64,000 nucleotides of DNA from a virus (IMGVR_UViG_3300028299_000002:21970-85969), one strand, 5' to 3'; counted from the first letter of the stretch, positions 30,153-55,269 are shown. Notes: a model not told the origin generated them from the sequence alone. Translations and numbers: made by a program.

Positions 30153-31694
30153 CTAAGAACATTTATCGAGAATTGTCTTTATAGTAATGAAATCCCGAAG
30201 CCGGAAAGACGTTTCGGCCTTTGCCATCTCGTTCAAATTGATTTTCTTTTCAGAAACACCTTTTTCAAGTTTGGCATGGAGTTCACTGTAATTTCCGATT
30301 TCAGCATCGGTTATTTCGGCCGCCTGCCCACCACCATCGGTTTTCGGAATAAATCTCTGCATATCGGCTATGCTTACTCCGGAACGTGATTTCATTAATA
30401 CCTGGACCGCTTCGGCAATCGGATGACCTTCGATAGTCAATGATTTTTCCAGATTTTCGACATATCCGGCAACCTTTTCAATCATATCACAAACACCAGT
30501 GAGGGACTTTTCCAGACCATCGCCCTGGGATTCGAGGGACTTCATTATGGAATTATTTTTTTCCTGAATGTCACTGGTAATCGAATGCAATTCACGCATG
30601 AACTGAGTAGCATCAATGACCACTTCATCATCATCGCCGATAAGACCTTTTTCAAGATCATCGGGATCGGCATCGGGGTCGGCATCAGGATCATCATCAG
30701 GATCATCATCAGGATCAGGATCGTCGTCACCGGCACCAGATTTGAATAATTTCATCATAAAACCTTTAATCAAACCGACATCTTCCTTAATGTCTTTCGC
30801 CAGACCTTCAATATCATCGCCGGTTTCATCTTCCACTTCGGCAGGACTCAGATCAAGAGATTTGGCTAATTCCTCAGCCTCATCCTGGGATTTACCAAGT
30901 TCCACGAAATGCGCTACCGCCTCTTCGTAAGTATTAAACGATTTCATAATAAAATCCTCCTTGTTTTTCTTATCGTTTTTTAACTTTTTTTTCTTTTTAT
31001 CGTTGGATTTATCGTCAATATCACCACCGGGAGCAGTGACTTTAACATTTGTATCAATATTATCTTTCACTATTACATCGCCACCGGTTTTAGTGGTTAT
31101 TTCCGTTTCTACTGGAGTCGCACTCAAACTTTTGAATATCGGTGCATTGTGTTGTTCAACCAGTTTCAGATAAGTGGATTTAAGTATCGGATTGGGGGTA
31201 ATGACTACATTGACAATCTTGGCACTTTTAACTAAACCGGTAGGTGTCCGTTTATTGCCATAACTTCCCTCAACGCTCCAGCCAACAGTCTTTTGATGGT
31301 CCGGGAATTCTTTATTATGTTGCTCAATGGCTTTTAGCATTTTCCATGTCTGATCGGCCATATCGTGATTTTTAAATAAAGCACCTTTAATTACGGTGCT
31401 GTTTTCATTGGTAAAGCGTTCATGGGGAAAACCGATAACATTTACCGGTGAATTTTTTGGAAGATGTTCATATTTGATTACACCATTTGAATCGAAATAA
31501 GAGAAGTCAAGCGATTTTTGCATAAGACGCTCGCCCTGTTCATCTCTCTGGGTATTGCTGATCTCACCTAATACAATCCGCTTTTCATCATTCTCAGGTG
31601 ATGTTGATTTCTCAAGATCAATCATCCCTAATAAACTGAAATCAGGCTCATAAGCCATGACTTCTTGCATATTTAGATCAGATAGTTCTCTCAT
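30153..31694 (-). CDS. Prohead protease fused to scaffold
   Basis: GEISNTQRDEQGE, IKYEH, GWSVEG, VITPNPI protease motifs; acidic coiled C-terminus with DPDDD repeats; likely ATG at 31694 after GGAG. Confidence 0.85.
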   Translation of the reverse strand: MRELSDLNMQEVMAYEPDFSLLGMIDLEKSTSPENDEKRIVLGEISNTQRDEQGERLMQKSLDFSYFDSNGVIKYEHLPKNSPVNVIGFPHERFTNENSTVIKGALFKNHDMADQTWKMLKAIEQHNKEFPDHQKTVGWSVEGSYGNKRTPTGLVKSAKIVNVVITPNPILKSTYLKLVEQHNAPIFKSLSATPVETEITTKTGGDVIVKDNIDTNVKVTAPGGDIDDKSNDKKKKKLKNDKKNKEDFIMKSFNTYEEAVAHFVELGKSQDEAEELAKSLDLSPAEVEDETGDDIEGLAKDIKEDVGLIKGFMMKLFKSGAGDDDPDPDDDPDDDPDADPDADPDDLEKGLIGDDDEVVIDATQFMRELHSITSDIQEKNNSIMKSLESQGDGLEKSLTGVCDMIEKVAGYVENLEKSLTIEGHPIAEAVQVLMKSRSGVSIADMQRFIPKTDGGGQAAEITDAEIGNYSELHAKLEKGVSEKKINLNEMAKAETSFRLRDFITIKTILDKCS

Positions 31695-31704
31695 ACATTT
31701 CTCC

Positions 31705-31749
31705 AAAAAAATAGCCCATAATCATTGGTGAGTTCCAACAATTACGGGC
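31705..31749 (-). terminator. Intrinsic terminator/attenuator immediately before the protease RBS
   Basis: 15-bp stem GCCCGTAATTGTTGG/CCAATGATTATGGGC (3 G-U pairs), 6-nt loop, then UAUUUUUUU. Confidence 0.75.
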
Positions 31750-31823
31750 CACATGAGGGGTTCAGTGAAAATAATTACATAGACATTTCCTTAGACACAG
31801 AATAATTCTCAATAAGCATCTTC

Positions 31824-31853
31824 AATATACATACCACCTGAATATAATGTCAA
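31824..31853 (-). promoter_or_regulatory. Sigma70-like promoter for the head operon leader
   Basis: TTGACA-18 nt-TATATT; spacer contains ATTCAGGTGG. Confidence 0.6.
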
Positions 31854-31989
31854 TAATTATGACAAATATTTCAGATGTTTGTTTACTGACGAGGAATTAG
31901 ATACTTATTAAATTATTAGCAGTATTTTGAAGGGATAAATTAGAGATTCAATGTTATTTGGCATGTTTCCGTATATTTGATTTTATCAT

Positions 31990-32769
31990 TCATCTATTCA
32001 ATTGTCTTCCCCCGGCAATTTCATTGATTTTTTGAACCAGGTCCATCCGCTTGAACGTAATATGGAATGATCCCTTTTTATACCATTTACACTTAAAATA
32101 GTCAGTTTCACATTCAAATATCTTTTTGCTTGTGGCTTCTTTAATAACCGTCAGCAGATCATTTGGATATTTCACTATCCCCTTACCATCCAATAAATGA
32201 AATACATTATCGATAGACCGGATTTCCTGCTCATAGTAATGATTAACGCCAAGATAATATTCGCTGCATTCAATCCACCGATCCATGATAACTTTTTTAC
32301 CAACCATGAACTGTGAATTAGTCTTATAATTGTTTCGTCTTGGCCGGAACAGGTCAAATACCTCTCTGACCGACTCATCCATAAAATCGCCCAGGTTGTG
32401 AGTAAGGTCATTCAGAAACGACATAACATTTTCAATCGTTAATTCCGGCATACCATCATTATTATAGAGATTCCGGCTCAGATCACGTTCCCGTTTAACG
32501 GTAATCATTTTGCGTATTTCGGTCCTGTCAACAATTGATCTCCAGGCTTGGGAATTCAGATGCTTTTGGATTATCTTATAGTCCATCGTATAATCACTGA
32601 CACTTTGATTAAATATGGTACAATGACTATCCCCAAATACATTCCGCAAACGACTTTTGGCACTATCAACTAAATTTACGGCCTGTTGAATTTCACCACA
32701 TACAATATTGAATGTATTAATCATTTCGGTGATAGTGTTCGGTTTAATGATATCTCTTGTGTTATTCAT
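31990..32769 (-). CDS. DUF4942-like protein (resembles the C-terminal domain of phage methyltransferases)
   Basis: Likely start MNNTRD at 32769; YFKCKWYKKGSFHITFKRMDLVQKINEIAG. Confidence 0.7.
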   Translation of the reverse strand: MNNTRDIIKPNTITEMINTFNIVCGEIQQAVNLVDSAKSRLRNVFGDSHCTIFNQSVSDYTMDYKIIQKHLNSQAWRSIVDRTEIRKMITVKRERDLSRNLYNNDGMPELTIENVMSFLNDLTHNLGDFMDESVREVFDLFRPRRNNYKTNSQFMVGKKVIMDRWIECSEYYLGVNHYYEQEIRSIDNVFHLLDGKGIVKYPNDLLTVIKEATSKKIFECETDYFKCKWYKKGSFHITFKRMDLVQKINEIAGGRQLNR

Positions 32770-33409
32770 TGTTATGACTTCCCCTATAATCCAAACAAAC
32801 CTGTCTGGCCTCCAATAATTCCCGGATTTGTTCATTCGTTCCACCATGATCGGGATGCCGTTGAATAGCAAGTTTTTTGAATTCCCGGTTTATTTCATCG
32901 GCTGTTGCAGTATTATCAAGCCCCAAGACTTCGAAACTTTTCCCCACCTTATTATTGGATGAACTAAATGCTAATTCGTTGATCCAACTGCCAAATAGAC
33001 GGTAGAACCAATCAAAATTATTAAAATTCCGATCCTGGTTAAACCAATCATAATGGTTGAATTCTCGTTCCTGTTCCCTCTGCTGCTCTCGTTCCCTTTT
33101 CTCACGTTCTTTTTGCCTGAAATATTCAGGGAACAGTTCTTTTTTCAATGTGATTATCTCTGTAGCGTAGAAATAATTCCACAGTTTATCAGGCAATCCA
33201 CCAACGGTTTTATTGTGAATGCCATCCCATTTTGCCCGAATAGCATGTACGGCATTATTAAATCCCTTGATTGTTCCCCTGGCATTCCCAACTATCAATA
33301 ATTCATTAAAATCGTTTCGAAATTCCTTTATGAATTCCTGGTGATTGAACTTATTATCAATATCCAGTTTATACTTTTTCACATAGTATTTTGTGGGATT
33401 AATACTCAT
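32762..33409 (-). CDS. DnaJ (J-domain) protein
   Basis: C-terminal FEVLGL..EINREFKKLAIQRHPDHGG. Confidence 0.8.
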   Translation of the reverse strand: MSINPTKYYVKKYKLDIDNKFNHQEFIKEFRNDFNELLIVGNARGTIKGFNNAVHAIRAKWDGIHNKTVGGLPDKLWNYFYATEIITLKKELFPEYFRQKEREKREREQQREQEREFNHYDWFNQDRNFNNFDWFYRLFGSWINELAFSSSNNKVGKSFEVLGLDNTATADEINREFKKLAIQRHPDHGGTNEQIRELLEARQVCLDYRGSHNNE

Positions 33410-33411
33410 TG

Positions 33412-35909: not shown

Positions 35910-36863
35910 TTATTCTAATATTAACCGAATGAAATCCAATATATGTTGATCTTCGGATGTCATTGACTTTTCAAGTAATGACCTGTATTTCTCAAAATAT
36001 GGTTTCAATATTGGTTTGATCAGACTGATTCGATTACTGGCATAACGTCGATCCTTACCAAGTTTTTTACTGATTTCGTCCAATGTCTGCGGCGTTTTAT
36101 ATTTACCTATCCCCAGGTACATTTGAATTATTTGATAATCAACGTTTTTAATCTTCCCCTGTTTCTGGAGTTTCTTTATCGGTATCATTAGCCTTTCAAT
36201 TTGTGGTATATCAGAATTTAACTGAATATCATCACTGGATGAGACATTATCATCTATTGGTTCAATTGTATTTGCCTTATTAGTCTCAATCCGATTGACA
36301 ATCTCTAATGTTTTTTTAGCATCGTACATTTCACCGGTTTTATTGTATTTCAATTTAATATTGTTGGCAATTGTCTCAGCATCCGGATAGTTCCCATGGA
36401 TTTTATAATACTTATCTTTAAATTTATCAATTACCCGTCTATGCCGAAGATCATAGTACGATAAATTAACCTGTGATTGCAACTTTATTCCAACGCCCCA
36501 CATAGCACCGGATATTCGTTTGTTCATAATGATTTTCAGTTCATTCTTATTTATTTTCCGTTTGATATTATCATTATACGTCTTAATACAGGCCATACGA
36601 CCGGCGGCCAACATATCCGCAAATGTTCCGATCGGCTGACCATCATAATATTCCACTCCGACATTGAGTTTATTCGCTATGTTTTTCGCCATCCCAACAT
36701 AATATCTGATATTATCCGTAAAATAGTCTGCCCCGGCCTCACTAACTTTTCTAAGTCGGTCCATGCCTTTTTCACCATATTGGATATTACCATGTTTATC
36801 AACCCAATATTGTCCACCCCTGATACCGGGATTTTTAATATTAACTGCTTTTATTATTATCAT
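35910..36863 (-). CDS. Sigma70-family sigma factor-like protein with N-terminal PGxRGG tag
   Basis: Region 2-like DMLAAGRMACIK, region 3-like HGNYPDAETIA, region 4-like TLDEISKKLGKDRRYASNRI. Confidence 0.7.
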   Translation of the reverse strand: MIIIKAVNIKNPGIRGGQYWVDKHGNIQYGEKGMDRLRKVSEAGADYFTDNIRYYVGMAKNIANKLNVGVEYYDGQPIGTFADMLAAGRMACIKTYNDNIKRKINKNELKIIMNKRISGAMWGVGIKLQSQVNLSYYDLRHRRVIDKFKDKYYKIHGNYPDAETIANNIKLKYNKTGEMYDAKKTLEIVNRIETNKANTIEPIDDNVSSSDDIQLNSDIPQIERLMIPIKKLQKQGKIKNVDYQIIQMYLGIGKYKTPQTLDEISKKLGKDRRYASNRISLIKPILKPYFEKYRSLLEKSMTSEDQHILDFIRLILE

Positions 36864-37356: not shown

Positions 37357-40300
37357 CTATATCACAAATACAATTTTATTGGATTTCATTAACACACCCT
37401 GATCATCGGTACGTTTAGCATTATCGACTAAACTCATTACCGATTTCTTATCCTCAAGCCTGGTTTCGGTTCGAATATCATGTGGTGTATCTGTCAATAC
37501 TAAATGACCGTCAACTGTCATTTCTTTGGGTACGCCTGTCCGGTTCGAACGGCTGAAGAACTGGTCTATTGTCGAATAACTATTTGCTCCACTTGCCATT
37601 GCAATAGCGGTCGTTGCCCCCATTTCGCCAGGCTTGCCGGTATATTGCAGATTCAATCCCTCTGTACCGGCATCGGTATGGATGGCGAACCGGACATTCT
37701 TATCGGTTCTGAAACTGGTTTTGTTTTTATCAATATCATCCAACTTCGTTTTTCCGTCAAATCTGACAATCCCGGACCCTGGATAATTTTTCTTTAAATA
37801 GCGTTCGATCTCGTTTACTGTACCGTATTGCTGTGCATAGATCAGTACCTTTTCGTCCGGCCCCTTTGTTTTGATATGCTCATTAATGATATCGCCCATT
37901 TTGGTAAACTTCTCATTATTTTCAAACTTGGTAGAGTTCAATACCCGGTTTAATTTCTGGTCCCGTTGCAGTACATCAAACTTTTTCGCTTTATAGTCTT
38001 CCATTGTCTTTTTATACTGTGTTTTTTGAATATCTGACAACCCGGCGTTATGAATATGCTGATTGAATGTATGTTGGAGATCCTTGCGAACTGTAAAAAC
38101 CCTGTCATCAATCTCTCGATGCAGTATTTCAGTCAGTTTATCCTTCATTCCTGCGCCACGATGAAGATTTTTGTACTTTTCCATAAAGGCTTTTTGATTC
38201 CCATATTTTTCTGGATCAATGGTCTTCAGATAGAAATAGAGTTCAGACAGATCGTTGGGAGTCGGTGAACCGGTACCCGCAACGAAATACGGCATTGACG
38301 CTGCCAGATCAGACAATCCTTTGCTCATCCCGGATGATCCACGACCTTCCCGTTGTGTTGATTTATGCGCTTCATCGACAATCATCATATCAAAACCGGC
38401 ACCTTTAATAATGTCATTATCAAACAGGTACTTTTCTTTATTGACCAATACAATCGTATTCGGATCACTATTATAGAGTTTTTGACGTGCATTTTTATTC
38501 GATGAATCAACGATTATAACATTAAAATCAGAGAATTTCTTAACCTCATCGCTGAAATTCGGCATCAGTTTCTTTGGCATAGAAATAATAGTTTTCGGCA
38601 TCTTACCCGTCTGTTCTCTGATCTCTGCGATGGCAGACAGGTAGGCCGCGCTCTTGCCGGTCCCGGCCTCGAAATTCAGATATGCCCGTTTTTCCTTAGC
38701 GATTAGTCGTGCTGCTGATTGTTGATGTGGAGTAATTACCAATTTCTGCGATACCCCGTTTTTATCCGGCGGTAAATATGCGTTCAGTCCTTCAGGCAGA
38801 TAATCACTAATATTCGCTTTACCGGCCTTAATATCTGATGTAGTCATTTCACCAATCTGTTGCTTGGTAACTATCGGACGTTCTTTGATCATTTTCTCAA
38901 ATGCGGCTGGCCGGATAGTCATTTTATAACTACCTTCGCCCAACATTGTAATATTGACATCGGACTTATTTAATTTCAGTTTATCCCTTATAGAATTGAG
39001 TCTCGAACGGCTCGAAGATGAGAATTCCATATTTCTCTTTTTATTCTCGAATTGATATAACAATTCCGCCGCCTGGTTTAATGATCCCTCAGCCTGGCCA
39101 TAACTCTCATAGGCTCTCTGAATATACTGCAATGCTGTTGCATTGGCCTGTACCCGATCGCCAAACAAGGCACCTTCGCCATGACCAAAATTCTTTGTCC
39201 TTTGCGCCCTGTCCAGATATTTATCTCCATTCTGCATTCCATTTTTAGCAACATTCTGGCCGTGTTTTTCAATGTACTTTTTAAGATTACTTATCTCATT
39301 GCCGTATTTATCGGCTCCCATGCTGTTTTCAAGATAGTAATTCATTAACATGGCAGCATTGCTCGATCCCAATGTCTTGTAAGTGTCCAGGTCCATAATA
39401 CTATTCCCGGAAGACTCACCGGTTATCCCGATCATGGCCTCAAATCCACCTTTGGTAATATTTCGGGCAATTGTTGTTGATCCCGTCCCCTTACCTGTAA
39501 TTTCCTCACCTTGCTTATTTATTCCGCCCCTGGTGTTGATAATCAGTCGGTAATGATCATCTATCTCCATTTCAACCGCTTTTTCGTTTTTCAATACTTC
39601 CAGAATTTCATCATTACTCATTGGTTTGATTTCCATGATATCACTACCACCGGTATACTTCACCTTATTCTGCAATATTTTTGAAACGGCTGACTTTTCA
39701 CGTTGATAGGCTTTGATCTGGTAATGAAATTTCAGAAATTCCTCTGCATTTTCTTTGATGATCTCCCGAAGATGTTTCTTTTCGTCCGGTAAATCCGTTG
39801 TATCTGATCCAAGCATAGCCTCTTTAGCCTCAGATATAACCTCGTCAATGGCCTTATCACGCTCAGATTTAATTTTATGGAGCTGTTTTAACCGTTCAAT
39901 ATTCCGTTCCTTTGTATCGGCTATTTTGGATATGTCTTTTTCGATTTTATCCCGTTCCTCTTTGCTTATATCGGTTTGAACGCCCAATTTCTCACGGATT
40001 TTACTATGCAATTCCTCTTTTGTCTGTTTTTGGGCAGTCTCAATCTCTTTTTTACGGTTTACGGCCTCGTCACGTTCATCTTCACTTAATTCCGGCTTTT
40101 TGTTATCGGTTTCCTCTTTTTTGGCCTCATCATTTTTAGCACTCTTTGGCTGTAATACTTTGTGAGTTAGTCCCGATTTACCAGGTGCCCAGGCAATTGT
40201 TGCGGTACCATCACTATGGGGAACAATAAATATATGTCGCCCGTGCATCGGACTTGATTTGTCGGTAATTGTGATCCACTTACCACCCGGATATTTCTGT

Positions 40301-43300
40301 TGCATCGAACCACTGAAAGACTTGATGATATAACGGATGGATTTCTTGATCTTCGTTTGTTCTACAAGTTTATATTTTCCATCGTCAATATTTTTAAGAA
40401 ATTCTGTTGGTGATTCATACGATTTATCAACTATTTCACCATTCTCATCTAATTTTTCTACGGCTACATATATTCTACCGGAATTATTTTTATCAATAGA
40501 GACATTGGCCTTGTAATCGTCAAAATAATATATCTGTGATTTGTTGTATTTTTCTAATTCAGTGACCGGCGATAACTCATAACTGTCATATTCTTCTTTT
40601 GGTAATGGCTTCGAATAAACTACTAACCCATATCTGCTTCCATCATCTTCCCAACGGACGTAACCAAATTGTTTATCGCTTGGATAGGTGCCTATACTGA
40701 ATGGCCGATAGCATAATTGATATTTGTATTCTAAAGTCTTTTTATCATCCTGTTTAGTTTTCCGGTTCTGATAATCATGTACCGTAGATATTTTTCCAGA
40801 TTTGGTTTTCCGGGTATGTTGTTTGACGTGAGACTTAAATATGAAACGGTAATTCATCTTTGCTCCAATTGGTTGCGATTTATAAATATCAATTGTCTTA
40901 TTATTAAATGTCCCACGATTATCCACCGCTTTGATTTGATTGGCTTTTAAGGTAATCCATACCCTGTGCTTTATATCAGAATTGGTTGCAATACCACCAA
41001 TATGAGTTATCCCATCATATCCATTTTCTTTGACAATTTTCTTTATGATTACATCGTTTAGATACTCTTTATCAACACTATCGCCAAACATCCCCATTTT
41101 AACGGCTGTTAATTCTTTTAATGCAGCATAAAAATTAAGGTACGTTTTGGCATCTAATAATTTGTCTTTATACAGTTTTTTATATTTATTTTCATTCCAT
41201 GTGAATCCATACGGTGCATGTTTAGACTGTTCATCATGGAAATTTTTTAAACCCTCTTTTATTTCAGGTGTATCTAATACTTTTTGTTTCAAGGATTCTG
41301 GTATCGGATCATCCATATTCAGCGGATTTTTGATATTCAGATACACCGAATATGTCATAGGTTCTAATGGCTTTAAATTCTTTTTCAGGCGACTATAAAA
41401 CTCCCGGTCTGTTGGCATGTGTTCTTTGTGCATGTATTTAGAGCTATCAATATATTGATTTAATTCAACATCACTCATATTGGGAACGCTTTTCAGACTG
41501 GCTATTCTTTTCTTTAGTGCAGCTCGTCGGCTTATCAACCAACCAGGTGATATTGATCCATAACCATATTTACTGCCAAGTTTATAATATTCCCGATAAT
41601 CCTTTAGTCCCTCTGACTCTTTTATCATTTTCAGAACATCAGCCAGTTTCTTTTCATTTTCCTTAACACATTGGGACGCAATATTATTGATCGTCTTTCT
41701 TACTTCTTTATCCTGAAGATTATATAATTCATCATAGGACGTGCCTAATAATGGTATATCCAATCCCTTTTCTTTGTATGAATCGGCAACTTCCTTATTT
41801 TCGGTAAAATAGAATCCTTTACCCATTAATCCCGGCAATAGAGTATTGGGATCAAATGCTTTAAATCCACCATAATGAGTACCATGAAATACAATAAGCG
41901 GTTTACCGGTTTTATCGATAACCTTACTGGATTTATCCGGTTCATTTTCCCAATCCCCAAACCATGCTTTAAATTCAGGGCTTTTTATATTTAATGATTT
42001 ATAATTTTCTATCCCCCTATTGATAAGATAATTTGGCAAATCCTTTTGGGTTTGTTGAGCATATATACCCTCTTTTACCTGCACGAACTTTCCGATATTC
42101 AATCCGGTGCGCAACTTGAATATTTCTTCCATCCTCTTTTTACGTTCTTTCATCCCGGAAGTAAGCAGGGGACGACTTATTAATGTCCTGTAATCATCAA
42201 TATATTTTTGCCGCCATTTTTTTGACTTCCATTTTGGATTTTTTTGAACACTATTATCGTATGATTTCACCCGTACTATTTTACCCCGACTGCTTGCTCT
42301 TACATGCTGCTTTACATGCGATTTGAAGATGAATCTTACCGACTTCGTTATATCCGGGTCTTTCGGGTCGAATGTACCTCGATTACCGATTGCTGATTTG
42401 ATCTGATTCGGATTGAATGCTATCCAGTTATCATAATTCAATTCAGGATATTTGGTTTTACCAGATTTAATATAAACTCCGTCATATCCATTTTTTATCC
42501 CCCATTCTCTCATTGATAAGAAATAATTCCTACTGCTTTCATATTGGCCCTTGTCGTATTTCGCTCCCTCTACGCCTCTCCAAAAATCAAGGTCTTCCGC
42601 AAAATCTTCCGCCTCTAATTCAATTGGATTTGTGATCTTGAGATATACAGGGATAATATTTCCGCCCTCTTTGTCCGCAAATTCATTGGCAAGTTTTATA
42701 TCCGTTGCAAAATAAAATCCATAATGAGCAGATGGATGAGCTGATCTACCAAGCATCATTTCATCAAATATTTTGAAATTCTCATTCGTCCCGTGATAAA
42801 CCACCAATGGCTTTCCATCCTTATCCACAACCTTAGAATTACCGAACCACTTTTCGAATTCCGGCGTATCGGTTACGGGTATTTTATTCCTCAATTCATT
42901 CTGTTTTGCAAGTTTCAGAATTGCTTCATTGCCATGCTGAAAATCCTTTGTGCTGGCTGCCTTTGTTAATAAACCCGGTTTGAATGTCGTATATCCATCA
43001 GTCAATGCTTTATCAACTGCCTCTAATTTTGTTTTGCAATAGGATTCACCACTGAATCCCTTTTTATCGAACCATGTAATTTGCCATTTATAATTCTCAT
43101 CGGAACTTTTCCTGATCAATGCTCCAAGCCAATAACCATCACCATTGGCCATTAATTCCATTGGTTTATTGCCGTATTTATGATTCCAGTATTTTAAGGC
43201 CAAATGTGCTTGTAATTTTGTCGTTATCGGCAGTGCATGATATTTTGAGATTTCATTCAAGTCCAGTATGTGCTTAGAATAAAGAATTCTCTTATGAACT

Positions 43301-45831: not shown

Positions 45832-48800
45832 TTATTCACCACCGAATACTGATTTCCGTAGTTCTTTCTGTTTGCGAATGACCTTAAACATCTTGTCAAA
45901 TTCTTTATTTATAGTTGTTCTTTCCTCTTTTTCCGGATATGGTATTGCGATAAAACCATCTATCATAGGCACTATAATTTCTCCATGAGCTCGATAAACA
46001 AGAAAATCACTCTGGTTTCCTTTACCCTTGATCTTATCCTCTATATAGGCCGCAAATGCTCTGGCTGCCATCTCATGTGGTTCGCTCCAATAATCACCAA
46101 CCCGCGCTTGGTCCAACTTTTTCGCTTCAATCGCATAGGATGTCGGGACAGATTTTGTCTTTACAGTTGATTTCTTTGCATCATTAACCATTTGTAAACG
46201 ACCATCATATATTTTCATTGCAGCTGCAAGTTCATCCATACATCCATACCTGTTTTGATTATCAAAACCAGATCGTCCTCTAACATCTTTATATATTTTG
46301 CTAATAGATTCAAGCGTATCAGAGGAAAAATGACCGGAACCATATCTGCTTTTACTATTAGTGGATGGATAGTATTTTAATTTCAGGTCTTTCCCTTTTA
46401 TCAGTAGTTTGGTCAATTTGTCAAATTCGGCAAGTTGTTCCTTTGACGCTGGTAATAATCCCCTCGTATTACTTCGCCAGGTATATGTTTTAGTCAGATC
46501 GGATTTAAGGTCTTTTCTAATTGAATCAATAGAACTTTTTATTTGTTCCCGCGCTTTATTGACAAATATATCGACCTTTTCCCTGTCTTCGACATATTTC
46601 ACAGGCTTTTTATAAATATTATCCATTAGACTTTTAAAAGTAGCAATCATTTCCGGTTTTAATTGGGAATGATAACCTTCACCATGACTAATAAAATTCC
46701 TATCGATGTTCGTTTTCCTAAATACCTTATCGCCATTGTCATTTATTATCTTTTCGGATGGTGACTTTGAATCTTTACGTGCAAAATAGTGATCCAGGGC
46801 GTGAAAATACTCGTGCCCTAATGCCCCCGCACCCTTCATTTTAGTCAAGTTGATTACACCATAATCCAGTTCATAATGAGCTTTTGCACCGGACAATCCT
46901 GCGCCCCTTGCCCCAAATGCAATTGCCAATTCACCACCAAGCATTAATTCACTCGGAGTTACACCTAATACATCCGCAAGGTCTAATAATCCATCATAGG
47001 CGTGATTCAATACCTGTTGACGTTCAGATTGATTATTCCAATTACCAAATTCAATGCCTCTTGGTTTGAACTTTTTCATAAACATTTCAGGAGTGGCATC
47101 TTGATTCCTTCTTACGGTTCCTCTTCTAATCGCTATTTCGGGAGCGGGTAATATTTCTTCCCCAAAAGTAGTTTTCGTTTCCAATAATTCTTCAGCATGT
47201 TTTACCATGTATAATTTTGCCTCTTCTTCAGTTGCAAATGTCCGATCTACAATTTTCAGAAACTTCCTGTCTGTTATCCTTTTTAATATTGAATATCTGT
47301 CCTTTTCATTTCGATCTTGGAATACCCTGAATTTTTCCGCAACTGCATATAATGGTATCGCCTTTTCAGCCTCTTTTTCTGAATTATATACGGAATCCCG
47401 CCTGGTTGCTAATCCATATTTATCACCCTTTTTGCCAATTACCCAACCACTCCCATCAACTCTTTTCAATACTATATATTTATCCCGCCACGGTGACAGA
47501 GTATTCTTTTTTGTCGTCCGTTTATTTCTGGAATAGCCAAATTGCGCCGTATCCTTTCTTGCCCCACCTATCTTTTTACCAAAATCAATGATATTGCCCT
47601 CTTTGCGTCGTGCCAATACTTTCTTTTTCGCCGCTCCGGTTACTTCTTTCCAATCTTCAGGCTTGCCGGTACTTTTAATCTTCTTCCACATGGTCCCGTC
47701 TTTATGAACCGACACATGTCCAACCGGGAACACTTTACCCCTGATTAGAAAATGAACAGATTTTAATAACTTACCGAAATCAAATTTCAGACTGAATTTT
47801 ACTTTACCCCCCGTAGTATCTATTTCAGTGTAATAATCCATTGCACTGTTGTTCAATAGTTCAAATCCACTGCCAGGATAATATTGCCCGTCGTTCTTTC
47901 CCGTTGTATATATCATTTTGTTCTTATTGTGATCGCAGTAGATAACACTGTCTTGATTATACTGCTTCCCAAGTTCAACGAGTTCTTTGTCCTTGACATT
48001 CGGGACCATAACCATATAACTGTCTTCAATTTCGCCATATTTACCGGTGACTTTTACAAATTTCAATCCCTTTTTAATAAGGTCTTCCCGTAGTTTCTTC
48101 TCACGGTTTTTTATATCCGGTTCCGTTAGTTTTTTATCATCGGGATCATTGGGATTAATCCCGGCGCTGATAAAGCCTACAATGCCATATTTTAATAACG
48201 TAGTGACTTCCTTTTTGGATAAATGTATTTCACCGCCTTTACCAGGCATATCTTGTTTACATTTCTCAGATAGCGATTCAGGTATTTTGGCATTGTGATT
48301 GTTTTTCGAATCCTCTTTAGGCAATTCCCATGACCGATTTATTGGATGCCCGGAACTTACCGGACTCTTTTTAGTCTTCTTATTCGTATATTGATTTACG
48401 GTTACTAATTTCCCGCTTGCACTCATTTTCGTATGTTGCCTGACTATCGATTTGAATAGTTCAAAGGATTTTCTTACCCATCTTTTCTTCCGTGTTTCCT
48501 TCTTCACATTCTGTTTTGTTAGATATTGTTGTACCGAGCCACCGCTATGAAAAAATGCGTCTGCCGTTTCCAGCTCTTTCACGATGGTCGATAAATAATT
48601 CTGGAGTAATTTCAACTCCTCTTTGGTTTTGCCAAGTTTCCCCTGCTGCTTCAGTATCGCCGGTGCCAGTTTGTAATTCTTATTGTCAATGATCCTTTCC
48701 GCCGCTTTGACCACATTACCCAATAATCCGGCTAATTGACGTTTAACCGCCTCAACCTTGTTATTATTGATCTGGCTTATACCGGTTATGACATTACTGG

Positions 48801-51414
48801 ATTCCGGTGATCCGAAGAATGATGTTTGGTTCTGTGCCTGTTTATATCGTGATACAATCCCATCCAGTTCATCTTTACTGATCTTCTTTTTCGAGTCGGT
48901 GATCTTTTTCAATACCTCAAACTGGAATTGTGATCTCAATCCGGCCAATCCGATTAATATACCGTGAGATTCCGCCAAATCACCATGTCTGATCAGATTG
49001 CTTATTTCCGGGATCAATGTGGTAAGTGATAATTTTCGTTGTACGGTTAATGGAGATACGCCCACACGTTCGGCAATTTCTTCATAACTCATATCAACGT
49101 CTTTGAGTTTTTTATAGGCATTGGCCGTTTCAATCGGATTCATCTCTTGACGGGCAAGATTTTCCGCAACCTGGATGGCATAAAGTTCTTTTTTATCCTT
49201 GACATCTAATATCTGTGCCGGGATAGTTGGTAATCCGGCCAGTTTAGATGCTCTCCAACGCCGTTCACCAAATATAATTTTATGTGTACCGTTTTCAATC
49301 GGTCGTACTCCAATCGGCTGCATCAATCCGATTTTACGGATGGAGTCACCCAATTCTTTTAATTTCTGCTGATCAAAATCAACCCGTGGCTGGTCCTCGT
49401 CCCGGACAATCATATTAACACTAATTTCCTGAACATTGGCCTTGCTTTTTGGGATCTCCCCTGATGATCCAAATAGGGATGTCTGACTTGGTTCTTCCGG
49501 CTTTTTGACTTTAGAGTTCTCATACGGATTAATAAGTACCATCTTTCCGGTTTCTGTAGTCCGGAAATGACCAGATACGTGGGATTTGAATAGGAGGCGG
49601 ATGGATTTATGCAATTTGACAATTTCTTTATCATTTACCCATGTTCTATTATCATTACCTTTTTCATCCTGATATTGAATACAATATATTGGTTTACCTT
49701 TATCCGTTTTATCCAATTGACATACTTTGCCGGTCAATGTTCTTGATTTATGACCGTATAATGCCCCAATATCCTTCTGATGGATAGTTACTTGATCATA
49801 TAATCGGATTTTTGTTTTTATTTGATTTTTGATCTCATTATTACTTTTTTTTGAATAGTAATTGTATATCTCATCATAATTCATATATTTTTTAGAACGT
49901 GATCCGATTTCTTGATTAATAAATTTGCAAAAATGATCTGGCAGTATATCGACTATATAATCATAAGAAACATTTTTATTATTCCTATTTGCTTCATATA
50001 ATTTGAACCAGAATGAACCGTCAGAAAAATATGGTGGTTCGCCCATTATAAAACGCCTTAAATCATCTCCCGATTTTCTTGATTTAATTTCTTTAATAAA
50101 TACCGGAAGGATAATCTTTTGATTCTTTTCAATATCTGATGTTAGCAATGGATATTTGATATTTGTCGCACCCGGTATTTTAGTTTTGGAGTTACTATAC
50201 TCTCTCACACTCGCAATCTTACCCAAGGCCGTTACCCGTGTATGTGCCTTTACATGGGATTTCTCTATTTTACCACCCTTTTCATCCTTCGCTGGTTCGA
50301 TCCGTTTGCCCTTATCGTTTTCCGGTGTCAGTTCGCTCCATACCTCAATGAAGTTCTGCTCATCTTCAGTAAATAGTTCATCATAATCATCCGGTGTATA
50401 CTTACCGCCCGGTTCATTCTTTTTATTTACCTTTGGCAATTCAAACGTATCGCCCTTACTTTTCGCTAAGGCAAATTTCCGGGACAGTTTACCTTCCAGG
50501 TATCCGTTTAACAGTTCCGGTGATATATAATTAGTTCTGCATACGTTTGGTGTATTACCCAGATGTTCAGAAACAAATTTCAATGCTTCCGCAACAACCT
50601 TTTTACGCTCGTTATCTTCACCCTTGTTTCCTGCATTAAGCAGCTGTTTTGTGAATTCAGCATTGGCCCTGAATGTCCGTAAATCCTTCGCCGTTAATCC
50701 GTATATACCAAGATATTTATTCACTCCATCGGAATTGACATTGCCCTTTGCGTCAATCTCAAATAACCGTTCCCCAGGCAATTGCTGTAATTGTCTTAAT
50801 GATTCTACCACAACCGGATCGGTGATCTCATGGGATTGCTCAACACTTTTTTTACCGATATAATTCAGAGTAACCGAATTCTCATTGAATATCACATGTT
50901 TTTTCAACAATGTGGTTATTCCATGAGTATCATTGCTTTCGGTATATTTTTCATTACCAACACGACCACCCGTTAAATCAATAATACGAACGGCCAAAGC
51001 AGTATATTTCTTAACCATATTGCTGCCGTTGATATCGTTATTTACGGCTTCCCGGAGTTCCGGGAGTCGATGGATCGCATTGGTGATCCGTTTATATTTT
51101 TCGCCTTGTTTTTGATCTACAAACTGCTGCTGATATCGCCGTTGTAACCTGCCCTTACTATCACGCCATTCATGGGTATATTTATCGTGCTTATCATAAG
51201 CATAGGCATGTTTAGCGTCTTCCGGGATGCCATGTTTTTTATATTCCGATGGATCAATAGCCTGGCGTTTAGCGGCCTTATTTTCCTTTGGTTTGGCTTT
51301 TCGCCCTGTCGGACGTTCACCATATTGAACATCGCCCTTTTTATCAATCCAATATTTGCCGCCTCTGGCTCCCGGTCGTTTGATTTTCGATGTCGATTTG
51401 AATATAAATTTCAT
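45832..51414 (-). CDS. Giant polyvalent protein: topoisomerase IB, ParB, DUF3293-like, LPD5/zincin/LPD1
   Basis: DSKGRLQRRY, GGRVGN, KDLRTF, LGNT..NY; QPIGVR..GERRWRA..ENLARQ; NQDSV; FGKKIGGARKD, HEYFHALDH, EMAARAF. Confidence 0.85.
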   Translation of the reverse strand: MKFIFKSTSKIKRPGARGGKYWIDKKGDVQYGERPTGRKAKPKENKAAKRQAIDPSEYKKHGIPEDAKHAYAYDKHDKYTHEWRDSKGRLQRRYQQQFVDQKQGEKYKRITNAIHRLPELREAVNNDINGSNMVKKYTALAVRIIDLTGGRVGNEKYTESNDTHGITTLLKKHVIFNENSVTLNYIGKKSVEQSHEITDPVVVESLRQLQQLPGERLFEIDAKGNVNSDGVNKYLGIYGLTAKDLRTFRANAEFTKQLLNAGNKGEDNERKKVVAEALKFVSEHLGNTPNVCRTNYISPELLNGYLEGKLSRKFALAKSKGDTFELPKVNKKNEPGGKYTPDDYDELFTEDEQNFIEVWSELTPENDKGKRIEPAKDEKGGKIEKSHVKAHTRVTALGKIASVREYSNSKTKIPGATNIKYPLLTSDIEKNQKIILPVFIKEIKSRKSGDDLRRFIMGEPPYFSDGSFWFKLYEANRNNKNVSYDYIVDILPDHFCKFINQEIGSRSKKYMNYDEIYNYYSKKSNNEIKNQIKTKIRLYDQVTIHQKDIGALYGHKSRTLTGKVCQLDKTDKGKPIYCIQYQDEKGNDNRTWVNDKEIVKLHKSIRLLFKSHVSGHFRTTETGKMVLINPYENSKVKKPEEPSQTSLFGSSGEIPKSKANVQEISVNMIVRDEDQPRVDFDQQKLKELGDSIRKIGLMQPIGVRPIENGTHKIIFGERRWRASKLAGLPTIPAQILDVKDKKELYAIQVAENLARQEMNPIETANAYKKLKDVDMSYEEIAERVGVSPLTVQRKLSLTTLIPEISNLIRHGDLAESHGILIGLAGLRSQFQFEVLKKITDSKKKISKDELDGIVSRYKQAQNQTSFFGSPESSNVITGISQINNNKVEAVKRQLAGLLGNVVKAAERIIDNKNYKLAPAILKQQGKLGKTKEELKLLQNYLSTIVKELETADAFFHSGGSVQQYLTKQNVKKETRKKRWVRKSFELFKSIVRQHTKMSASGKLVTVNQYTNKKTKKSPVSSGHPINRSWELPKEDSKNNHNAKIPESLSEKCKQDMPGKGGEIHLSKKEVTTLLKYGIVGFISAGINPNDPDDKKLTEPDIKNREKKLREDLIKKGLKFVKVTGKYGEIEDSYMVMVPNVKDKELVELGKQYNQDSVIYCDHNKNKMIYTTGKNDGQYYPGSGFELLNNSAMDYYTEIDTTGGKVKFSLKFDFGKLLKSVHFLIRGKVFPVGHVSVHKDGTMWKKIKSTGKPEDWKEVTGAAKKKVLARRKEGNIIDFGKKIGGARKDTAQFGYSRNKRTTKKNTLSPWRDKYIVLKRVDGSGWVIGKKGDKYGLATRRDSVYNSEKEAEKAIPLYAVAEKFRVFQDRNEKDRYSILKRITDRKFLKIVDRTFATEEEAKLYMVKHAEELLETKTTFGEEILPAPEIAIRRGTVRRNQDATPEMFMKKFKPRGIEFGNWNNQSERQQVLNHAYDGLLDLADVLGVTPSELMLGGELAIAFGARGAGLSGAKAHYELDYGVINLTKMKGAGALGHEYFHALDHYFARKDSKSPSEKIINDNGDKVFRKTNIDRNFISHGEGYHSQLKPEMIATFKSLMDNIYKKPVKYVEDREKVDIFVNKAREQIKSSIDSIRKDLKSDLTKTYTWRSNTRGLLPASKEQLAEFDKLTKLLIKGKDLKLKYYPSTNSKSRYGSGHFSSDTLESISKIYKDVRGRSGFDNQNRYGCMDELAAAMKIYDGRLQMVNDAKKSTVKTKSVPTSYAIEAKKLDQARVGDYWSEPHEMAARAFAAYIEDKIKGKGNQSDFLVYRAHGEIIVPMIDGFIAIPYPEKEERTTINKEFDKMFKVIRKQKELRKSVFGGE

Positions 51415-52503: not shown

Positions 52504-53535
52504 CTACAATCCATAAGTTTTTAAATCATACGAACTTAATTTGAATTTCTTTTTGACATCAATATTTCGCGCCTCGCGCTCCAACTCCGCAATAGTTCTC
52601 TCAAGAGACTCAATTTCCCATTTTGTCGTCGCATTTTTTGCGATATCTGCCGGTACCGGATTGGCATCAATGACATCCCCTGTCTGATTTGTGTTATTAA
52701 CCGGTTTCTGGTTATTGAACAGTTCTCTCATCGTTTCCAGTTTATTCCGCAATTCGGAAACTTTAAGAATAATACTGTCCTTGATACGCTGGCCGGATAT
52801 ATCGAATTCAAGGGATTTGGATAAACCACTGTTATAAGAGTAGTTTTGACTTTTAAGGTCTTTTATAAAAGCATCCCTTTTCTTAATATTCCCAAAAAGC
52901 CGAATACCCCAGAATGGACTGCCATCCCTATTCTTCGTTTTGCCATCGTGGTAACTAACAACATATTTTGCTTTTCCGACATTGTATTGGAGATCATACA
53001 GTTTTTTACTCTTTTTCCCTGCCGGTTTTTTGTCGTCCCTATCGGCCTTGACTTTATTATATACATCAGCAAGTACATTTTTATCAACTGTCCCTGGTTT
53101 TCCGTTGGACACTTTATTTATAAATTCTTCCAAGCTATTTGCATGTTTTGCCTTTTTGTACAGTATGGCATTTACTCGTTTCCATTCTGGACTGAGATTT
53201 TGGGTTTTCTTCGTCTTCACATTTTGATACTGTGAGACATTCGCAATCTTGCCGGTCTTTGTTTTTCGGGTGTGCGCCTTCACCGTCGATTTACTCAGCC
53301 CCGCACCGCGTTCCGGTAATAGTTCCTCTACCGATTTTGTAGCCAGCATCTTCTTTGCTGTCTTTTCATCCACATCATAATGCGTCATCACCCGTTCAAT
53401 ATCAGTCTTCGGTTGCCCCTGTTTTCTTGTCGATTTAATCAGTATCCAACCATCGTCTGTTTGCACAAAACGGCTCATTGCCACCGGTTCATCTTCACGA
53501 TGAAGATTTCCATTTTTGTCTGCTACGTATATCAT
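52504..53535 (-). CDS. Multi-module protein with KS sites and one basic tag
   Basis: ILIKS, GLSKS-TVKAHTRKTKTGKIANVSQYQNVKTKK, GLSKS. Confidence 0.7.
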   Translation of the reverse strand: MIYVADKNGNLHREDEPVAMSRFVQTDDGWILIKSTRKQGQPKTDIERVMTHYDVDEKTAKKMLATKSVEELLPERGAGLSKSTVKAHTRKTKTGKIANVSQYQNVKTKKTQNLSPEWKRVNAILYKKAKHANSLEEFINKVSNGKPGTVDKNVLADVYNKVKADRDDKKPAGKKSKKLYDLQYNVGKAKYVVSYHDGKTKNRDGSPFWGIRLFGNIKKRDAFIKDLKSQNYSYNSGLSKSLEFDISGQRIKDSIILKVSELRNKLETMRELFNNQKPVNNTNQTGDVIDANPVPADIAKNATTKWEIESLERTIAELEREARNIDVKKKFKLSSYDLKTYGL

Positions 53536-53930
53536 AACTCTATCTCCTTTTTCTCTCGTTTTATTTCGTTAATGAATTCTTTTACCCGGTTGATCACAAC
53601 ATCGTACTGTTCGCCGTTGTTTCTTTCGGTCAATACCGATGATAGTAACGCTATTGCTATATCCAACTTCGAATCCTCATAATCCGGATTAATTATGACA
53701 TTAATTGAATCTCTGAATTGAATCAAATCCCGCATACTGAATTCGTGTATATTCATCTCACCATCTAATATTATTGTCTGCTTGGCAATATCCGGTGATA
53801 TTTTATTCAGTTTTGCCATGATCTGAATCATGGTTGTCTGGTCCATCCCCGGCAATTCGATAATATTGATCTTATTGGGATCAAGCTGCTTGATTATGTC
53901 TTTGGTTATTTTCATTATTTCCATTCCCAA
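53532..53930 (-). CDS. Hypothetical protein
   Basis: Coupled ORF. Confidence 0.6.
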   Translation of the reverse strand: MGMEIMKITKDIIKQLDPNKINIIELPGMDQTTMIQIMAKLNKISPDIAKQTIILDGEMNIHEFSMRDLIQFRDSINVIINPDYEDSKLDIAIALLSSVLTERNNGEQYDVVINRVKEFINEIKREKKEIEL

Positions 53931-54133
53931 TGATTTTCGTTTAATATTTCACCCGCCTCGTCACAAATACATTTACCTTCCAGTTGATTTTCACCAACAC
54001 ACCCTTTTTCCGGCCATTTCTTAGCGACACTTGTTGATATGCGTCTAAAAGAAATCCCCGATTTTCTCCACAACTTTATTATATTTGCCTCATATTCGGT
54101 GAATACTACTTCGTGATTATAACTCTTGGCCAT
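53915..54133 (-). CDS. Hypothetical protein
   Basis: 72-aa ORF. Confidence 0.55.
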   Translation of the reverse strand: MAKSYNHEVVFTEYEANIIKLWRKSGISFRRISTSVAKKWPEKGCVGENQLEGKCICDEAGEILNENHWEWK

Positions 54134-54138
54134 TTATA

Positions 54139-55269
54139 TCATCTCAATTCTGGATTTTTATCAAGCCATTTACGTCGTTCAGCGTCTTCTTCATCACTGC
54201 TGACATATTTTATTTCACCGTCCTTGATATACATATATTCACTGTAGAATCTGACCCACCGGCACCTCCCACTCACATGACACAATACCCCCGGACTTGC
54301 CAATTCGTGATGTTCACGGTTTACATATCCCTTATCTACCTTTTTACGTTTCGCCGTAGACCTTCCTATATTCGTTTTGGTTGACCAAATACAGGTATCC
54401 CATATCTTTGCTATGCTTTGGTACTTATCGCTTGCCACGGGCAAATTAGCGTACTCCGGCGGTGGATTATCAATTACTTTCATCACCTTACCATGAATAT
54501 TATCCAAACACCATCCGCAAGCATCTATATGACTAACGCCTACCACATATTCACCGGATCGGACACCACTGATAAAACCGGCATTAACTAAAGTATTCAT
54601 TTCAGTAATGGCAATTCGCTCCATATCCCGGTTTAACATACTGTCATCACCAAATTGCTCAAATAAACGCTGTGCAAGGGTTTCAGGGCTTATACCATCT
54701 ATATTTGCATTGATCAATAATTGTCTAAGCCGATGCTGTGACGCTTCGCTAATACCTTTTATGTGTTCGGCGGCTAAATGTTCTGCCATATTAATATATC
54801 TGACCTGTTCCCAGGTTAATTTCCCCTGATTTATGGCATCCCGGACAGATTTAGGTAAATTTGCAAGGTCTAATGCAATCTCTTTTTCACCCAATTCCAC
54901 CATGGCTCCCACCAGGAACGATTTCAGGACCAGTTCAGTGATACGTTCGATCGGAATACCAAATAATTTTGCTAAGAATTCCTGAAATTTATCAATGTCT
55001 TTATCAGACATTTTCTTTTTTAACAGGTTTTTTTCGGTAATGTACTTTAGGACACTTTCATTCAGATCCTTGCGTTTCCACAATTGACCGTAATATTTGT
55101 TCTCAAGTTCGGCAATTATCTTATTTTCACCATCGCCGGGTTTCAACCGGTGTGCGTGCTTGGACTTATTCAGTCCCAATACTTCAATCAAACCATCTAT
55201 GACAATGGATTTCTCAAATCTCGTTGCATTCATTAACTGTTCAGGAATTTGGATATTTATCTCTGACAT
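54139..55269 (-). CDS. Head morphogenesis protein (SPP1 gp7 / Mu gpF-like)
   Basis: DMERIAITEMNTLVNAG, DACGWC, CHVSGRCRW. Confidence 0.85.
   Translation of the reverse strand: MSEINIQIPEQLMNATRFEKSIVIDGLIEVLGLNKSKHAHRLKPGDGENKIIAELENKYYGQLWKRKDLNESVLKYITEKNLLKKKMSDKDIDKFQEFLAKLFGIPIERITELVLKSFLVGAMVELGEKEIALDLANLPKSVRDAINQGKLTWEQVRYINMAEHLAAEHIKGISEASQHRLRQLLINANIDGISPETLAQRLFEQFGDDSMLNRDMERIAITEMNTLVNAGFISGVRSGEYVVGVSHIDACGWCLDNIHGKVMKVIDNPPPEYANLPVASDKYQSIAKIWDTCIWSTKTNIGRSTAKRKKVDKGYVNREHHELASPGVLCHVSGRCRWVRFYSEYMYIKDGEIKYVSSDEEDAERRKWLDKNPELR

Follow-up and report, generated by a model that had tools for sequence, protein, structure and literature searches.

Giant polyvalent proteins of an uncultured SPO1/A511-related phage as candidate polyproteins of its capsid protease

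Two adjacent genes in a 64,000-nucleotide stretch of viral DNA (IMGVR_UViG_3300028299_000002:21970-85969; this whole stretch is called the window) encode giant proteins of 2824 and 1860 amino acids (aa) whose domains are separated by the motif Φ-x-K↓S/A (Φ, hydrophobic residue; arrow, predicted scissile bond), which also pervades the scaffold of the phage and the leader of its major capsid protein (MCP). Judged by sequence, both giants are probably co-assembled into the prohead and cut at these junctions by the capsid protease into separate enzymes, which would then be injected. This polyprotein reading was the original prediction; those of its parts that can be checked in silico came out as predicted and support it, and cleavage, packaging and injection are inferred. 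The window comes from an IMG/VR virus record of 90.6 kb (CheckV completeness, about 58%), and all of its genes lie on the minus strand. The region from 28.5 to 57.6 kb is a head module with the gene order portal, 376-aa protein, 343-aa protein, 1860-aa giant, 2824-aa giant, a few small genes together with a sigma-like factor, protease-scaffold fusion, and MCP. The giants sit between the portal (55743-57599) and the protease and MCP (28529-31706) on the same strand, that is, in a virion/head neighbourhood. The closest deposited phages by MCP are just 23-29% identical (ST4, Jeremy and PHB04, which are ∼90-kb myophages, SPO1-like Herelleviridae, and Bacteroides DAC phages), and the window is best read as holding the head module of an uncultured SPO1/A511-related myophage. 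When the protease-MCP region was compared with deposited phages (blastn, distant mode), zero matches were obtained. Two IMG/VR genomes retrieved via the MCP (G001 and G003; 73-75% MCP identity to the window) served as relatives.

Motif counts (pattern [LIVMF]-x-K-S) were compared with the expectation from residue shuffles that preserved the composition of each protein. In the pooled head set of eight proteins, 52 motifs were present versus 14.0 ± 3.6 expected, a number reached in 0 of 1000 shuffles, whereas the other 58 proteins of the window contained 15 versus 13.8 expected (z 0.3). Counts for tail, baseplate, and early proteins equalled the expectation. The head sets of G001 and G003 contained 49 and 35 motifs (12.9 and 10.9 expected), and their remaining proteins 5 and 4 (5.4 and 3.7 expected), respectively. 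The z values of the head sets in the three genomes were 10.7, 10.5, and 7.7; the frequency thus exceeds what Lys/Ser composition predicts, in all three genomes and only in head-interior proteins. Individual proteins of the window contributed as follows:

Scaffold fusion: 13 observed versus 1.0 expected
2824-aa protein: 14 observed versus 5.8 expected
1860-aa protein: 10 observed versus 3.9 expected
Portal: 5 observed versus 1.0 expected
376-aa protein: 4 observed versus 0.6 expected
343-aa protein: 3 observed versus 0.8 expected

By their predicted domains, both giants are typical polyvalent proteins as defined by Iyer et al. 2017. The larger one (2824 aa) contains InPase, three ART-PolyVal (ART, ADP-ribosyltransferase), DarA_C, and SNF2 domains, the 1860-aa protein TopoIB, ParB, SAM lyase-like, LPD5/HExxH zincin, and LPD1 domains (polyvalent-type scores: ART-PolyVal 1.8e-53, InPase 1.4e-34, LPD1 1e-19, DarA_C 5.6e-9, and LPD5 8e-4, the last below the cutoff). 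Pfam envelopes cover 46% and 34% of the giants, and 0 of the 24 sites fall inside them (P = 2.4e-6 under random placement), which bears out the claim that the motif sits at domain borders. When the giants were cut in silico at the junction sites, each fragment carried one domain. Most fragments span their Pfam models end to end (InPase, 13-134 of 135; two ARTs, 1-140 of 140), and the remaining ones correspond to DarA_C, SNF2, TopoIB, ParB, SAM lyase, and LPD5 through LPD1. The median distance between sites and the ends of homology blocks was 28 aa, compared with 69 aa for random positions (P about 0.05), a weak difference, the block ends being blurred by a repeated module. The features of the giants are:

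37357-45831, minus strand: 2824-aa polyvalent protein (Pfam run on the intact sequence and fragment by fragment)
Its predicted products: aa 16-151, InPase; 152-419, unknown; 420-760, ART; 761-1163, unknown plus ART; 1171-1651, ART; 1667-1830, DarA_C; 1838-2816, coiled coil plus SNF2 helicase
Its predicted small released peptides: aa 1-15, 1164-1170, 1652-1666, 1831-1837, and 2817-2824
42241-42363, minus strand: example junction, aa 1157-1197 (...DITK↓S-VRFIFK↓S-HVKQHVRASSRGKIVRVKSYDN), with two sites, a 7-aa spacer, and a basic β-module
45298-45399, 44494-44595, 43471-43572, 40753-40899, and 40321-40362, minus strand: further junctions of the 2824-aa protein
45787-45831 and 37360-37404, minus strand: its N-terminal and C-terminal tags
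45832-51414, minus strand: 1860-aa polyvalent protein (Pfam, site list, and fragment table)
Its predicted products: aa 7-385, topoisomerase IB; 386-603, unknown; 611-982, ParB; 989-1218, SAM-lyase-like; 1219-1854, LPD5/zincin/LPD1
50179-50280, 49504-49626, 48370-48489, and 47680-47781, minus strand: junctions of the 1860-aa protein
51316-51414, minus strand: its N-terminal tag and RGGKYW module
45835-45873, minus strand: its C-terminal tag
46780-46839, minus strand: HExxH zincin motif GHEYFHALDH (aa about 1534), kept in the orthologues of G001 and G003

Junctions are often double: a hydrophobic spacer is flanked by two sites that lie 6-15 aa from each other (K↓S-VRFIFK↓S, K↓S-IRLLFK↓S, K↓S-FELFK↓S, K↓S-IRYIIK↓S). 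Those named in the original prediction were all located, DITKSVRFIFKS (1163/1170) and KIKKSIRYIIKS (1830/1837) in the 2824-aa protein, KLHKSIRLLFKS (603/610) and WVRKSFELFKS (982/988) in the 1860-aa protein. At eight junctions in the giants and one in the 343-aa protein, a basic module comes next after the site (S-HVKxHxRxxKxGKxxxVxxYxNxKTK); its nine copies all share K, S, V, H, G, K, Y, N, and K. The N-termini of the giants are spacer-like strands (MKFIFK↓S and ...VRFIFK↓S), and their C-termini are short hydrophobic tails that run from the last site to the stop codon (VLMK↓S-NKIVFVI and ELRK↓S-VFGGE); the end motifs MKFIFKS, VRFIFKS, ELRKS, and VLMKS were accordingly found in place. Like the targeting sequence of the T4 type, which is a short N-terminal peptide ending in a protease site, are the tags MKFIFK↓S, MNDLRILSNVRFIFK↓S, and MIIIK↓A in the window, to which MRFIIK↓S, MNRVRFIIK↓S, and MMMIRYFIRK↓S correspond in relatives. 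The codons at the sites vary (AAA or AAG for Lys; TCG, TCC, TCT, TCA, AGT, or AGC for Ser); conservation and selection therefore act on the peptide and not on a DNA repeat, and a repeat at the nucleotide level was ruled out as an explanation on the same grounds. At 51 head-set sites, the Ser codon is TCN in 44, though AGY makes up 38% of the Ser codons in these genes. A few sites, among them IRK908↓S and AHK2490↓S in helicase motif II, are probably fortuitous.

The enzyme proposed to act on these sites is encoded directly upstream of the MCP gene; the last 325 aa of the protein resemble a scaffold. The features of this region are:

31131-31694, minus strand: prohead (capsid maturation) serine protease domain, aa 5-192 of the open reading frame 30153-31706, with candidate catalytic His81 (KYEH) and Ser144 (GWSVEG)
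30153-31130, minus strand: scaffold part of the protease-scaffold fusion, aa 193-517, with nine Φ-x-K↓S sites and EMAKA, beginning at K192↓S193
31038-31136 versus 29894-30001, both minus strand: N-arm mimicry, the stretch after the protease being a copy of the mature MCP N-arm
29996-30118, minus strand: MCP N-terminal leader, aa 1-41, with sites VAK17↓S, MMK35↓S, and MQK41↓A and the predicted mature N-terminus A42 (LDATTTTS...)
28529-29995, minus strand: mature MCP, HK97 fold family (phrog_752, E 2.3e-48)

The predicted extent of the protease gene, 30153-31694, stands insofar as the ATG at 31694 fits the starts of relatives and is the likelier start, but the longest open reading frame begins at a TTG at 31706. 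The protease matches phrog_1028, the head maturation protease (E 1e-20, aa 28-173), to which SPO1 gp3.2 is assigned at 1.8e-112. In its AlphaFold2 (AF2) model, the predicted local distance difference test (pLDDT) is 70-90 over aa 10-195, and Foldseek returned T4 gp21 (5JBL) as the top structure (probability 0.99-1.0, E 6.5e-4), followed by the proteases of Epstein-Barr virus, Kaposi's sarcoma-associated herpesvirus, and human cytomegalovirus, with modest template modelling scores (0.4-0.46 on the target). Among 26 homologues, S144 is invariant and H81 conserved in at least 90%; KYEH and GWSVEG correspond to NFDH and GFSVEG of SPO1, and the position of H81 and S144 points to a catalytic role. 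This protease, of assemblin fold and fused to the scaffold, would cut after Lys in Φ-x-K↓S/A, as transferred by homology from the mature N-terminus annotated for A511; that the motif marks the MCP leader and pervades the scaffold, as in SPO1, ST4, and A511, is either directly visible or strongly backed by homology. The consensus of herpesvirus assemblin is (V/L/I)-x-A↓S, whose logic Φ-x-K↓S parallels; Ser at P1′, the residue after the bond, is unusual for zincins, and small Ser/Ala at P1′ is typical of assemblin-like proteases.

All scaffold motifs that had been listed (FIMKS, ELAKS, KLFKS, SIMKS, GLEKS, NLEKS, VLMKS, EMAKA) were recovered. These sites keep their alignment columns in six relatives, the most distant of which has 51% MCP identity, whereas the sequence surrounding them is poorly conserved, and 24 of 24 protease-scaffold homologues (31-99% identity; 5.8 billion proteins searched) hold 7-16 sites versus about one expected. 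AF2 models the scaffold part with low confidence and places several sites inside predicted helices; this model is no guide to their accessibility. The linker after K192↓S193 (LSATPVE..TGGDVIVKDNIDTNVK) is 42% identical to the MCP after K41↓A42 (LDATTTTS..TGGRAITIENIDTDLK), with both Lys-Ser/Ala pairs aligned. Such mimicry was also found in ST4 and SPO1, where the protease and the MCP cross-match each other's PHROGs; the N-arm copy may seat protease or scaffold in the shell lattice as the MCP N-arm would.

The MCP leader carries the motifs attributed to it, VAKS17, MMKS35, and MQKA41. The window, SPO1, and ST4 share the PHROGs of protease and MCP (phrog_1028 and phrog_752). In SPO1, the scaffold holds 11 sites in 244 aa, and ALNK23↓A24-LEAGH of the MCP aligns with the leader of the window. 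In ST4, the motif is present in the scaffold, the C-terminal region of the protease, the MCP leader (LSK↓A-LQAS), and the end of the portal (DMAK↓SFGF...). For A511, whose capsid protein had been taken to mature at a Lys/Ser bond, the RefSeq record indeed annotates the mature Cps (mat_peptide) from codon 24, that is, S24 after K23 (EDALK23↓S24FTTG); this annotation reportedly agrees with N-terminal sequencing done by Loessner and Scherer in 1995. The predicted K↓S/A specificity is a trait of the whole protease clade (SPO1, ST4, A511, and the window).

In relatives, module content varies exactly at the junctions. The G003 counterpart of window 40321-45399 has InPase joined straight to the SNF2 block and is devoid of aa 152-1830 (three ARTs, DarA_C, and an unknown unit); G001 retains a single ART. 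Orthologues of the 1860-aa protein have gained and lost units between the same junctions. Thus, the effector load is highly variable among phages at 73-75% MCP identity. One relative gene ends with ...KKS-IRYFIKS-RIAL and starts with MMMIRYFIRK↓S. A distant relative (35-40% identity; protease 39-41%) has one K↓S just ahead of the SNF2 block and a second close to the C-terminus, both in different flanking sequence. The lineage of loci L016-L018 shows the same architecture with a different spacer (x-S-N-D-L-x-x-x-Y-x-D-I-x-K). Where the protease is present in that lineage (L017/L018; phrog_1028, E 1e-36), 12 of 13 sites in the protease and its acidic scaffold are K↓A, and so are the module-proximal junction sites; in the lineage of the window, K↓S is found in scaffold and junctions alike. 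In L017 (GCA_016276955.3, 24.6-kb locus), at least seven module-bearing proteins (253, 473, 1538, 944, 232, 301, and 198 aa) lie beside the portal and the phrog_1028 protease, and the cargo of this lineage is mostly encoded by single genes, not fused.

The basic module is not confined to close relatives. A profile built from the nine junctions retrieved 257 proteins at E ≤ 1e-3 from 1.84 billion cluster representatives, and a rescan with a profile of the module core counted 220 copies, spread over 142 proteins. Directly ahead of the core stand KS in 103, KA in 87, and KG in 7 copies, and 201 copies have L, I, M, F, or V at P3. Since the query held K-S only, the many K-A cases are not an echo of it. 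The module starts ≤25 aa from the N-terminus in 56 of the 220 copies, and 75 have a second site ≤25 aa upstream; a site ≤20 aa from the C-terminus was present in 37 of the 142 proteins versus 13.7 ± 3.5 expected. The bond-to-bond distance in double sites (proteins P0028-P0175) peaks at 7, 14, and 21 residues (17, 9, and 8 cases), which may merely mirror lineage-specific spacers. Domains joined to the module include InPase, ART-PolyVal, SAM lyase, zeta-toxin kinase, RadC, LPD1, TopoIB, ParB, exotoxin-type ART, and the 2′-5′ RNA-ligase superfamily (2H-type); conjugation-machinery families were not among the 25 families listed for module-bearing proteins. Neither Pfam nor PHROG contains a family that covers the module. 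AF2 models it (119 copies) as a four-strand β-meander (pLDDT 94) that starts at the P1′ Ser, with the preceding spacer unstructured; Foldseek against the PDB gave only short β-hairpin matches (E > 1), and no fold was assigned. At least three basic modules follow K↓S/A sites: HVKxHxRxxKxGKxxxVxxYxN, xxPGxRGGKYWxDKKGxxxYGE, and xKGxxKPGHKYIRRxGxxGxYxYEY (window 51316-51414; L008/L009). All are Gly-Lys-rich with aromatic ends and may be variants of one function. In P0043, encoded on a 6.4-kb contig without head genes, module copies have Leu instead of Lys at P1.

In the processing proposed here, the giants, the 343-aa protein, the protein at the MuF position (376 aa), and the portal tail would be co-assembled into the prohead core, with the hydrophobic strand tags and possibly the basic modules as candidate targeting signals. 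The activated protease would cut after Lys at Φ-x-K↓S/A. By this activity, the scaffold would be shredded to pieces of ≤65 aa, the 41-aa MCP leader removed, the portal tail and the MuF-position protein trimmed, and the giants separated into about twelve enzymes of 136-979 aa, and the small spacer peptides could exit the shell. The cassette would have the order domain, K↓S, short hydrophobic spacer, K↓S, 25-aa basic β-module, next domain, and most products would begin with a basic module (of the RGGKYW type at the N-terminus of the 1860-aa protein). The enzymes released would be a pyrophosphatase, three ADP-ribosyltransferases, DarA_C, an SNF2 helicase, topoisomerase IB, ParB, a SAM-lyase-like protein, and zincin/LPD. 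Spacers and terminal tags (MKFIFK↓S..., ...K↓SNKIVFVI) would represent trimmed capsid-targeting or docking strands, like the T4 capsid targeting sequence. The most speculative step is that the basic module may keep the products on DNA for ejection. Tentatively, and with less confidence than for the window itself, this may be extended to a portable "load, cut and carry" cassette for prohead targeting, separation by the protease, and co-injection with DNA across a wide range of uncultured phages (257 protein clusters, three lineages or more).

Several observations weigh against cleavage of the giants by the capsid protease. Most junction sites have the sequence K↓S-H-V-K, scaffold sites K↓S-L-[DET], and a ten-column matrix derived from scaffold sites of SPO1 and ST4 missed the junctions; being dominated by acidic context, this matrix was almost blind even to the window's own scaffold, and the core P3-P1-P1′ pattern was used in its place. 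In the model, the first strand of the folded module starts with the P1′ Ser, which could hinder cutting. The covariation of S or A between junctions and scaffold rests on two lineages, and SPO1 sites mix S and A at P1′. The A511 scaffold is weakly enriched (4 sites versus 1.6 expected). Part of the dominance of K-[SA] before the module is selection bias toward Lys, given that the wide profile included K-S columns, and the module was not found in 50,697 deposited phage records (tblastn, two queries). Some giant cargo is packaged uncut, such as the virion RNA polymerase of N4 and DarB of P1. Finally, the 1860-aa protein and its orthologues contain a conserved HExxH zincin of their own.

The main alternative is that the cassette is a packaging or docking tag combined with a DNA-binding handle, that at most the terminal tags are trimmed, and that the giants reside in the virion near full length as multi-enzyme proteins. 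That spacer and module are conserved as peptides and modelled as a defined mini-domain would fit this alternative, as would the similar tags at both termini of stand-alone proteins, which a targeting signal would predict, the P′ residues of junctions (S-H-V-K, not S-L-D/E), and the precedent of intact-packaged giants. It does not account, however, for the fact that the protease's P3-P1-P1′ signature is exactly what stays invariant (K and S in all nine junction copies, K-[SA] in 190 of the 220 module copies), nor for an S/A usage that tracks the scaffold of the same lineage. In T4, moreover, targeting sequence and cut site coincide, and the two functions are compatible. The tag without cleavage is, on balance, considered rather unlikely.

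Less likely still is that the junctions are cut, in the head or after injection, by the zincin-like metallopeptidase of the 1860-aa protein, in line with the proposal of Iyer et al. 2017. Its HExxH motif beside LPD5/LPD1 is kept in the window, G001, and G003, and processing by such a peptidase is proposed in that paper (PMC5512222). Yet the motif also marks scaffold and MCP leader, which are prohead-protease substrates, including those of SPO1, ST4, and A511, in whose examined head regions no polyvalent protein is present. Five cassette-rich loci (L015-L018 and L020; partial, 11-25 kb each) have no open reading frame with HExxH, and L017 and L018 among them have the phrog_1028 protease. The small P1′ residue, too, is that of assemblin-like proteases and not of zincins.

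That the repeats are scars of recombination or fusion between tagged genes, whose junction DNA promotes module shuffling without any present proteolytic role, is very improbable. The junctions do resemble a C-terminal and an N-terminal tag joined together (KKSIRYFIKSRIAL at a C-terminus beside MMMIRYFIRKS...), and relatives do shuffle modules there, but the site codons differ and distant lineages keep K-[SA] with unrelated spacers, which places the conservation at the peptide level. Scarring would account for the origin of the junctions and not for their maintenance, and it is compatible with cleavage. Chance or Lys/Ser-rich composition can practically be dismissed: the proteins are Lys-rich and a few sites are probably fortuitous, but the excess in the head sets of three genomes, its absence from non-head proteins, and the positional test all reject it.

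Beyond scaffold, MCP, and giants, the motif had been noted in the 343-aa protein, the protein at the gp7 position, the portal tail, and the sigma-like factor, and each of them does contain sites:

52504-53535, minus strand: 343-aa head protein, with junction GLSK82↓S plus HVK module (53209-53310) and conserved GLSK240↓S-LEF (52801-52836)
54139-55269, minus strand: 376-aa protein at the MuF/gp7 position, with conserved LGLNK35↓S and a predicted N-terminal propeptide (55165-55269)
55743-57599, minus strand: portal (phrog_11117), with a C-terminal tail (55746-55847) carrying NIGK↓S, LLK↓S, and QLKK↓S, then a short hydrophobic end
35910-36863, minus strand: sigma-like factor (phrog_351, E 8e-7), with MIIIK5↓A as its N-terminal tag, joined by a basic module of the RGGQYW type (36765-36863), and SLLEK299↓S close to the C-terminus

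Both sites of the 343-aa protein are kept in its orthologues in G001 and G003. The site of the 376-aa protein, for which neither Pfam nor PHROG gave a family match, has the counterparts LGLEKS in G001 and FQLKKA in G003, and the last site of the portal tail is kept in G001, G003, and L020. The sigma-like factor starts with MIIIK↓A-VNIKNPGIRGGQYWVDKHGNIQYGEKG, that is, with a tag and a module of the second type, as does the TopoIB-containing polyvalent protein. The tag is present in the orthologues of G001 and G003, and the protein is possibly further cargo, a virion-delivered sigma factor.

Proteolysis of cargo in the prohead has precedents. In T4, gp21, which has the same protease fold, breaks down the scaffold, shortens the MCP, and strips short N-terminal targeting peptides from injected cargo (IPI-III and Alt), including an ADP-ribosyltransferase. 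However, T4 cuts after L/I-x-E, not in Φ-x-K↓S/A, and its cargo consists of single units cut once, in contrast to multi-enzyme polyproteins with internal cassettes, double sites, and a basic module. In phiKZ, 201phi2-1, and SPN3US, one consensus (S/A/G-x-E) likewise extends across scaffold-like, shell, and ejection proteins, and cargo is processed in the prohead (PMC5694885, PMC10052503, PMC7411985); there, mostly propeptides are removed from separately encoded proteins, whereas the sites of the window divide unrelated catalytic domains of one polypeptide, and motif and lineage differ. The Herelleviridae A511 and SPO1 share with the window the PHROGs, a Lys-Ser/Ala cut at the homologous position, and a motif-studded scaffold, but identity is 23-27%, no polyvalent cargo or cassette is present in the head regions examined of SPO1 and A511, and the protease of the window is fused to the scaffold. 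Herpesvirus assemblin, pp220/pp62 of African swine fever virus, and adenovirus resemble it in the related fold, in a hydrophobic P3 with a small P1′ Ser, and in the principle of a core polyprotein; these are eukaryotic viruses, however, and their polyproteins give rise to structural core proteins, not to injected enzymes. In the Dar system of phage P1 (PMC12810830, PMC5512222), anti-restriction cargo enters during head morphogenesis and some of it is processed (DarA and DdrB processed and packaged, DarB packaged), and DarA_C is present in the window. Unlike the giants, the Dar proteins each have their own gene, and they are not known to contain a repeated junction cassette.

The domain set of the giants (InPase, ART-PolyVal, DarA_C, SNF2, ParB, LPD1, LPD5, zincin) is that of the polyvalent proteins described by Iyer, Burroughs, Anand, de Souza, and Aravind in 2017 (PMC5512222). 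Their paper proposes processing of polyvalent proteins into functional units by embedded zincins and, rarely, by a C-terminally fused assemblin-like peptidase; a search of the paper by terms found no junction motif, trans-acting prohead protease, or basic module. A polyvalent protein, gp47 of phi24B, a phage unrelated to that of the window, was detected in virions (bioRxiv 10.64898/2026.04.10.717836). It is thus already known that prohead proteases process injected proteins at the consensus of scaffold and shell (T4, phiKZ, SPN3US), and the taking apart of polyvalent proteins has been proposed (PMC5512222). The literature searched contained neither a link between polyvalent proteins and a trans-acting prohead protease nor a description of the basic module. 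In that literature, the junction cassette, its link to a trans-acting capsid protease, its spread in uncultured phages, and the basic module were not found and appear to be new.

Since 2017, the question has been whether an enzyme chain of 2-3000 aa acts as a whole or is split, and by what. The locus offers an answer that can be tested: it specifies the scissile bonds, the protease with its candidate catalytic residues, and the expected product sizes. If true, injected enzymes of tailed phages are made as polyproteins that the capsid protease matures, and the cassette is a sequence marker for virion-delivered effectors, including anti-defence proteins, in metagenomes, as well as a natural tag for loading proteins into phage heads. 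Cleavage occurs after Lys in this scheme, and the resulting peptides would therefore look fully tryptic, which makes standard tryptic virion proteomics blind to it and would defeat the originally suggested search for semi-specific peptides if trypsin were used; such processing may have been missed in cultured SPO1-like phages.

Outside the head module, a 252-aa protein with a peptidoglycan-binding-like N-terminus (window 17530-18288, minus strand) has Φ-x-K-S at both ends (MNEIFGK↓S... and ...YFVK↓S-LKELDA), two motifs versus 0.12 expected (0 of 500 shuffles). This may be due to chance, or the protein may be a trimmed virion-associated lysin.

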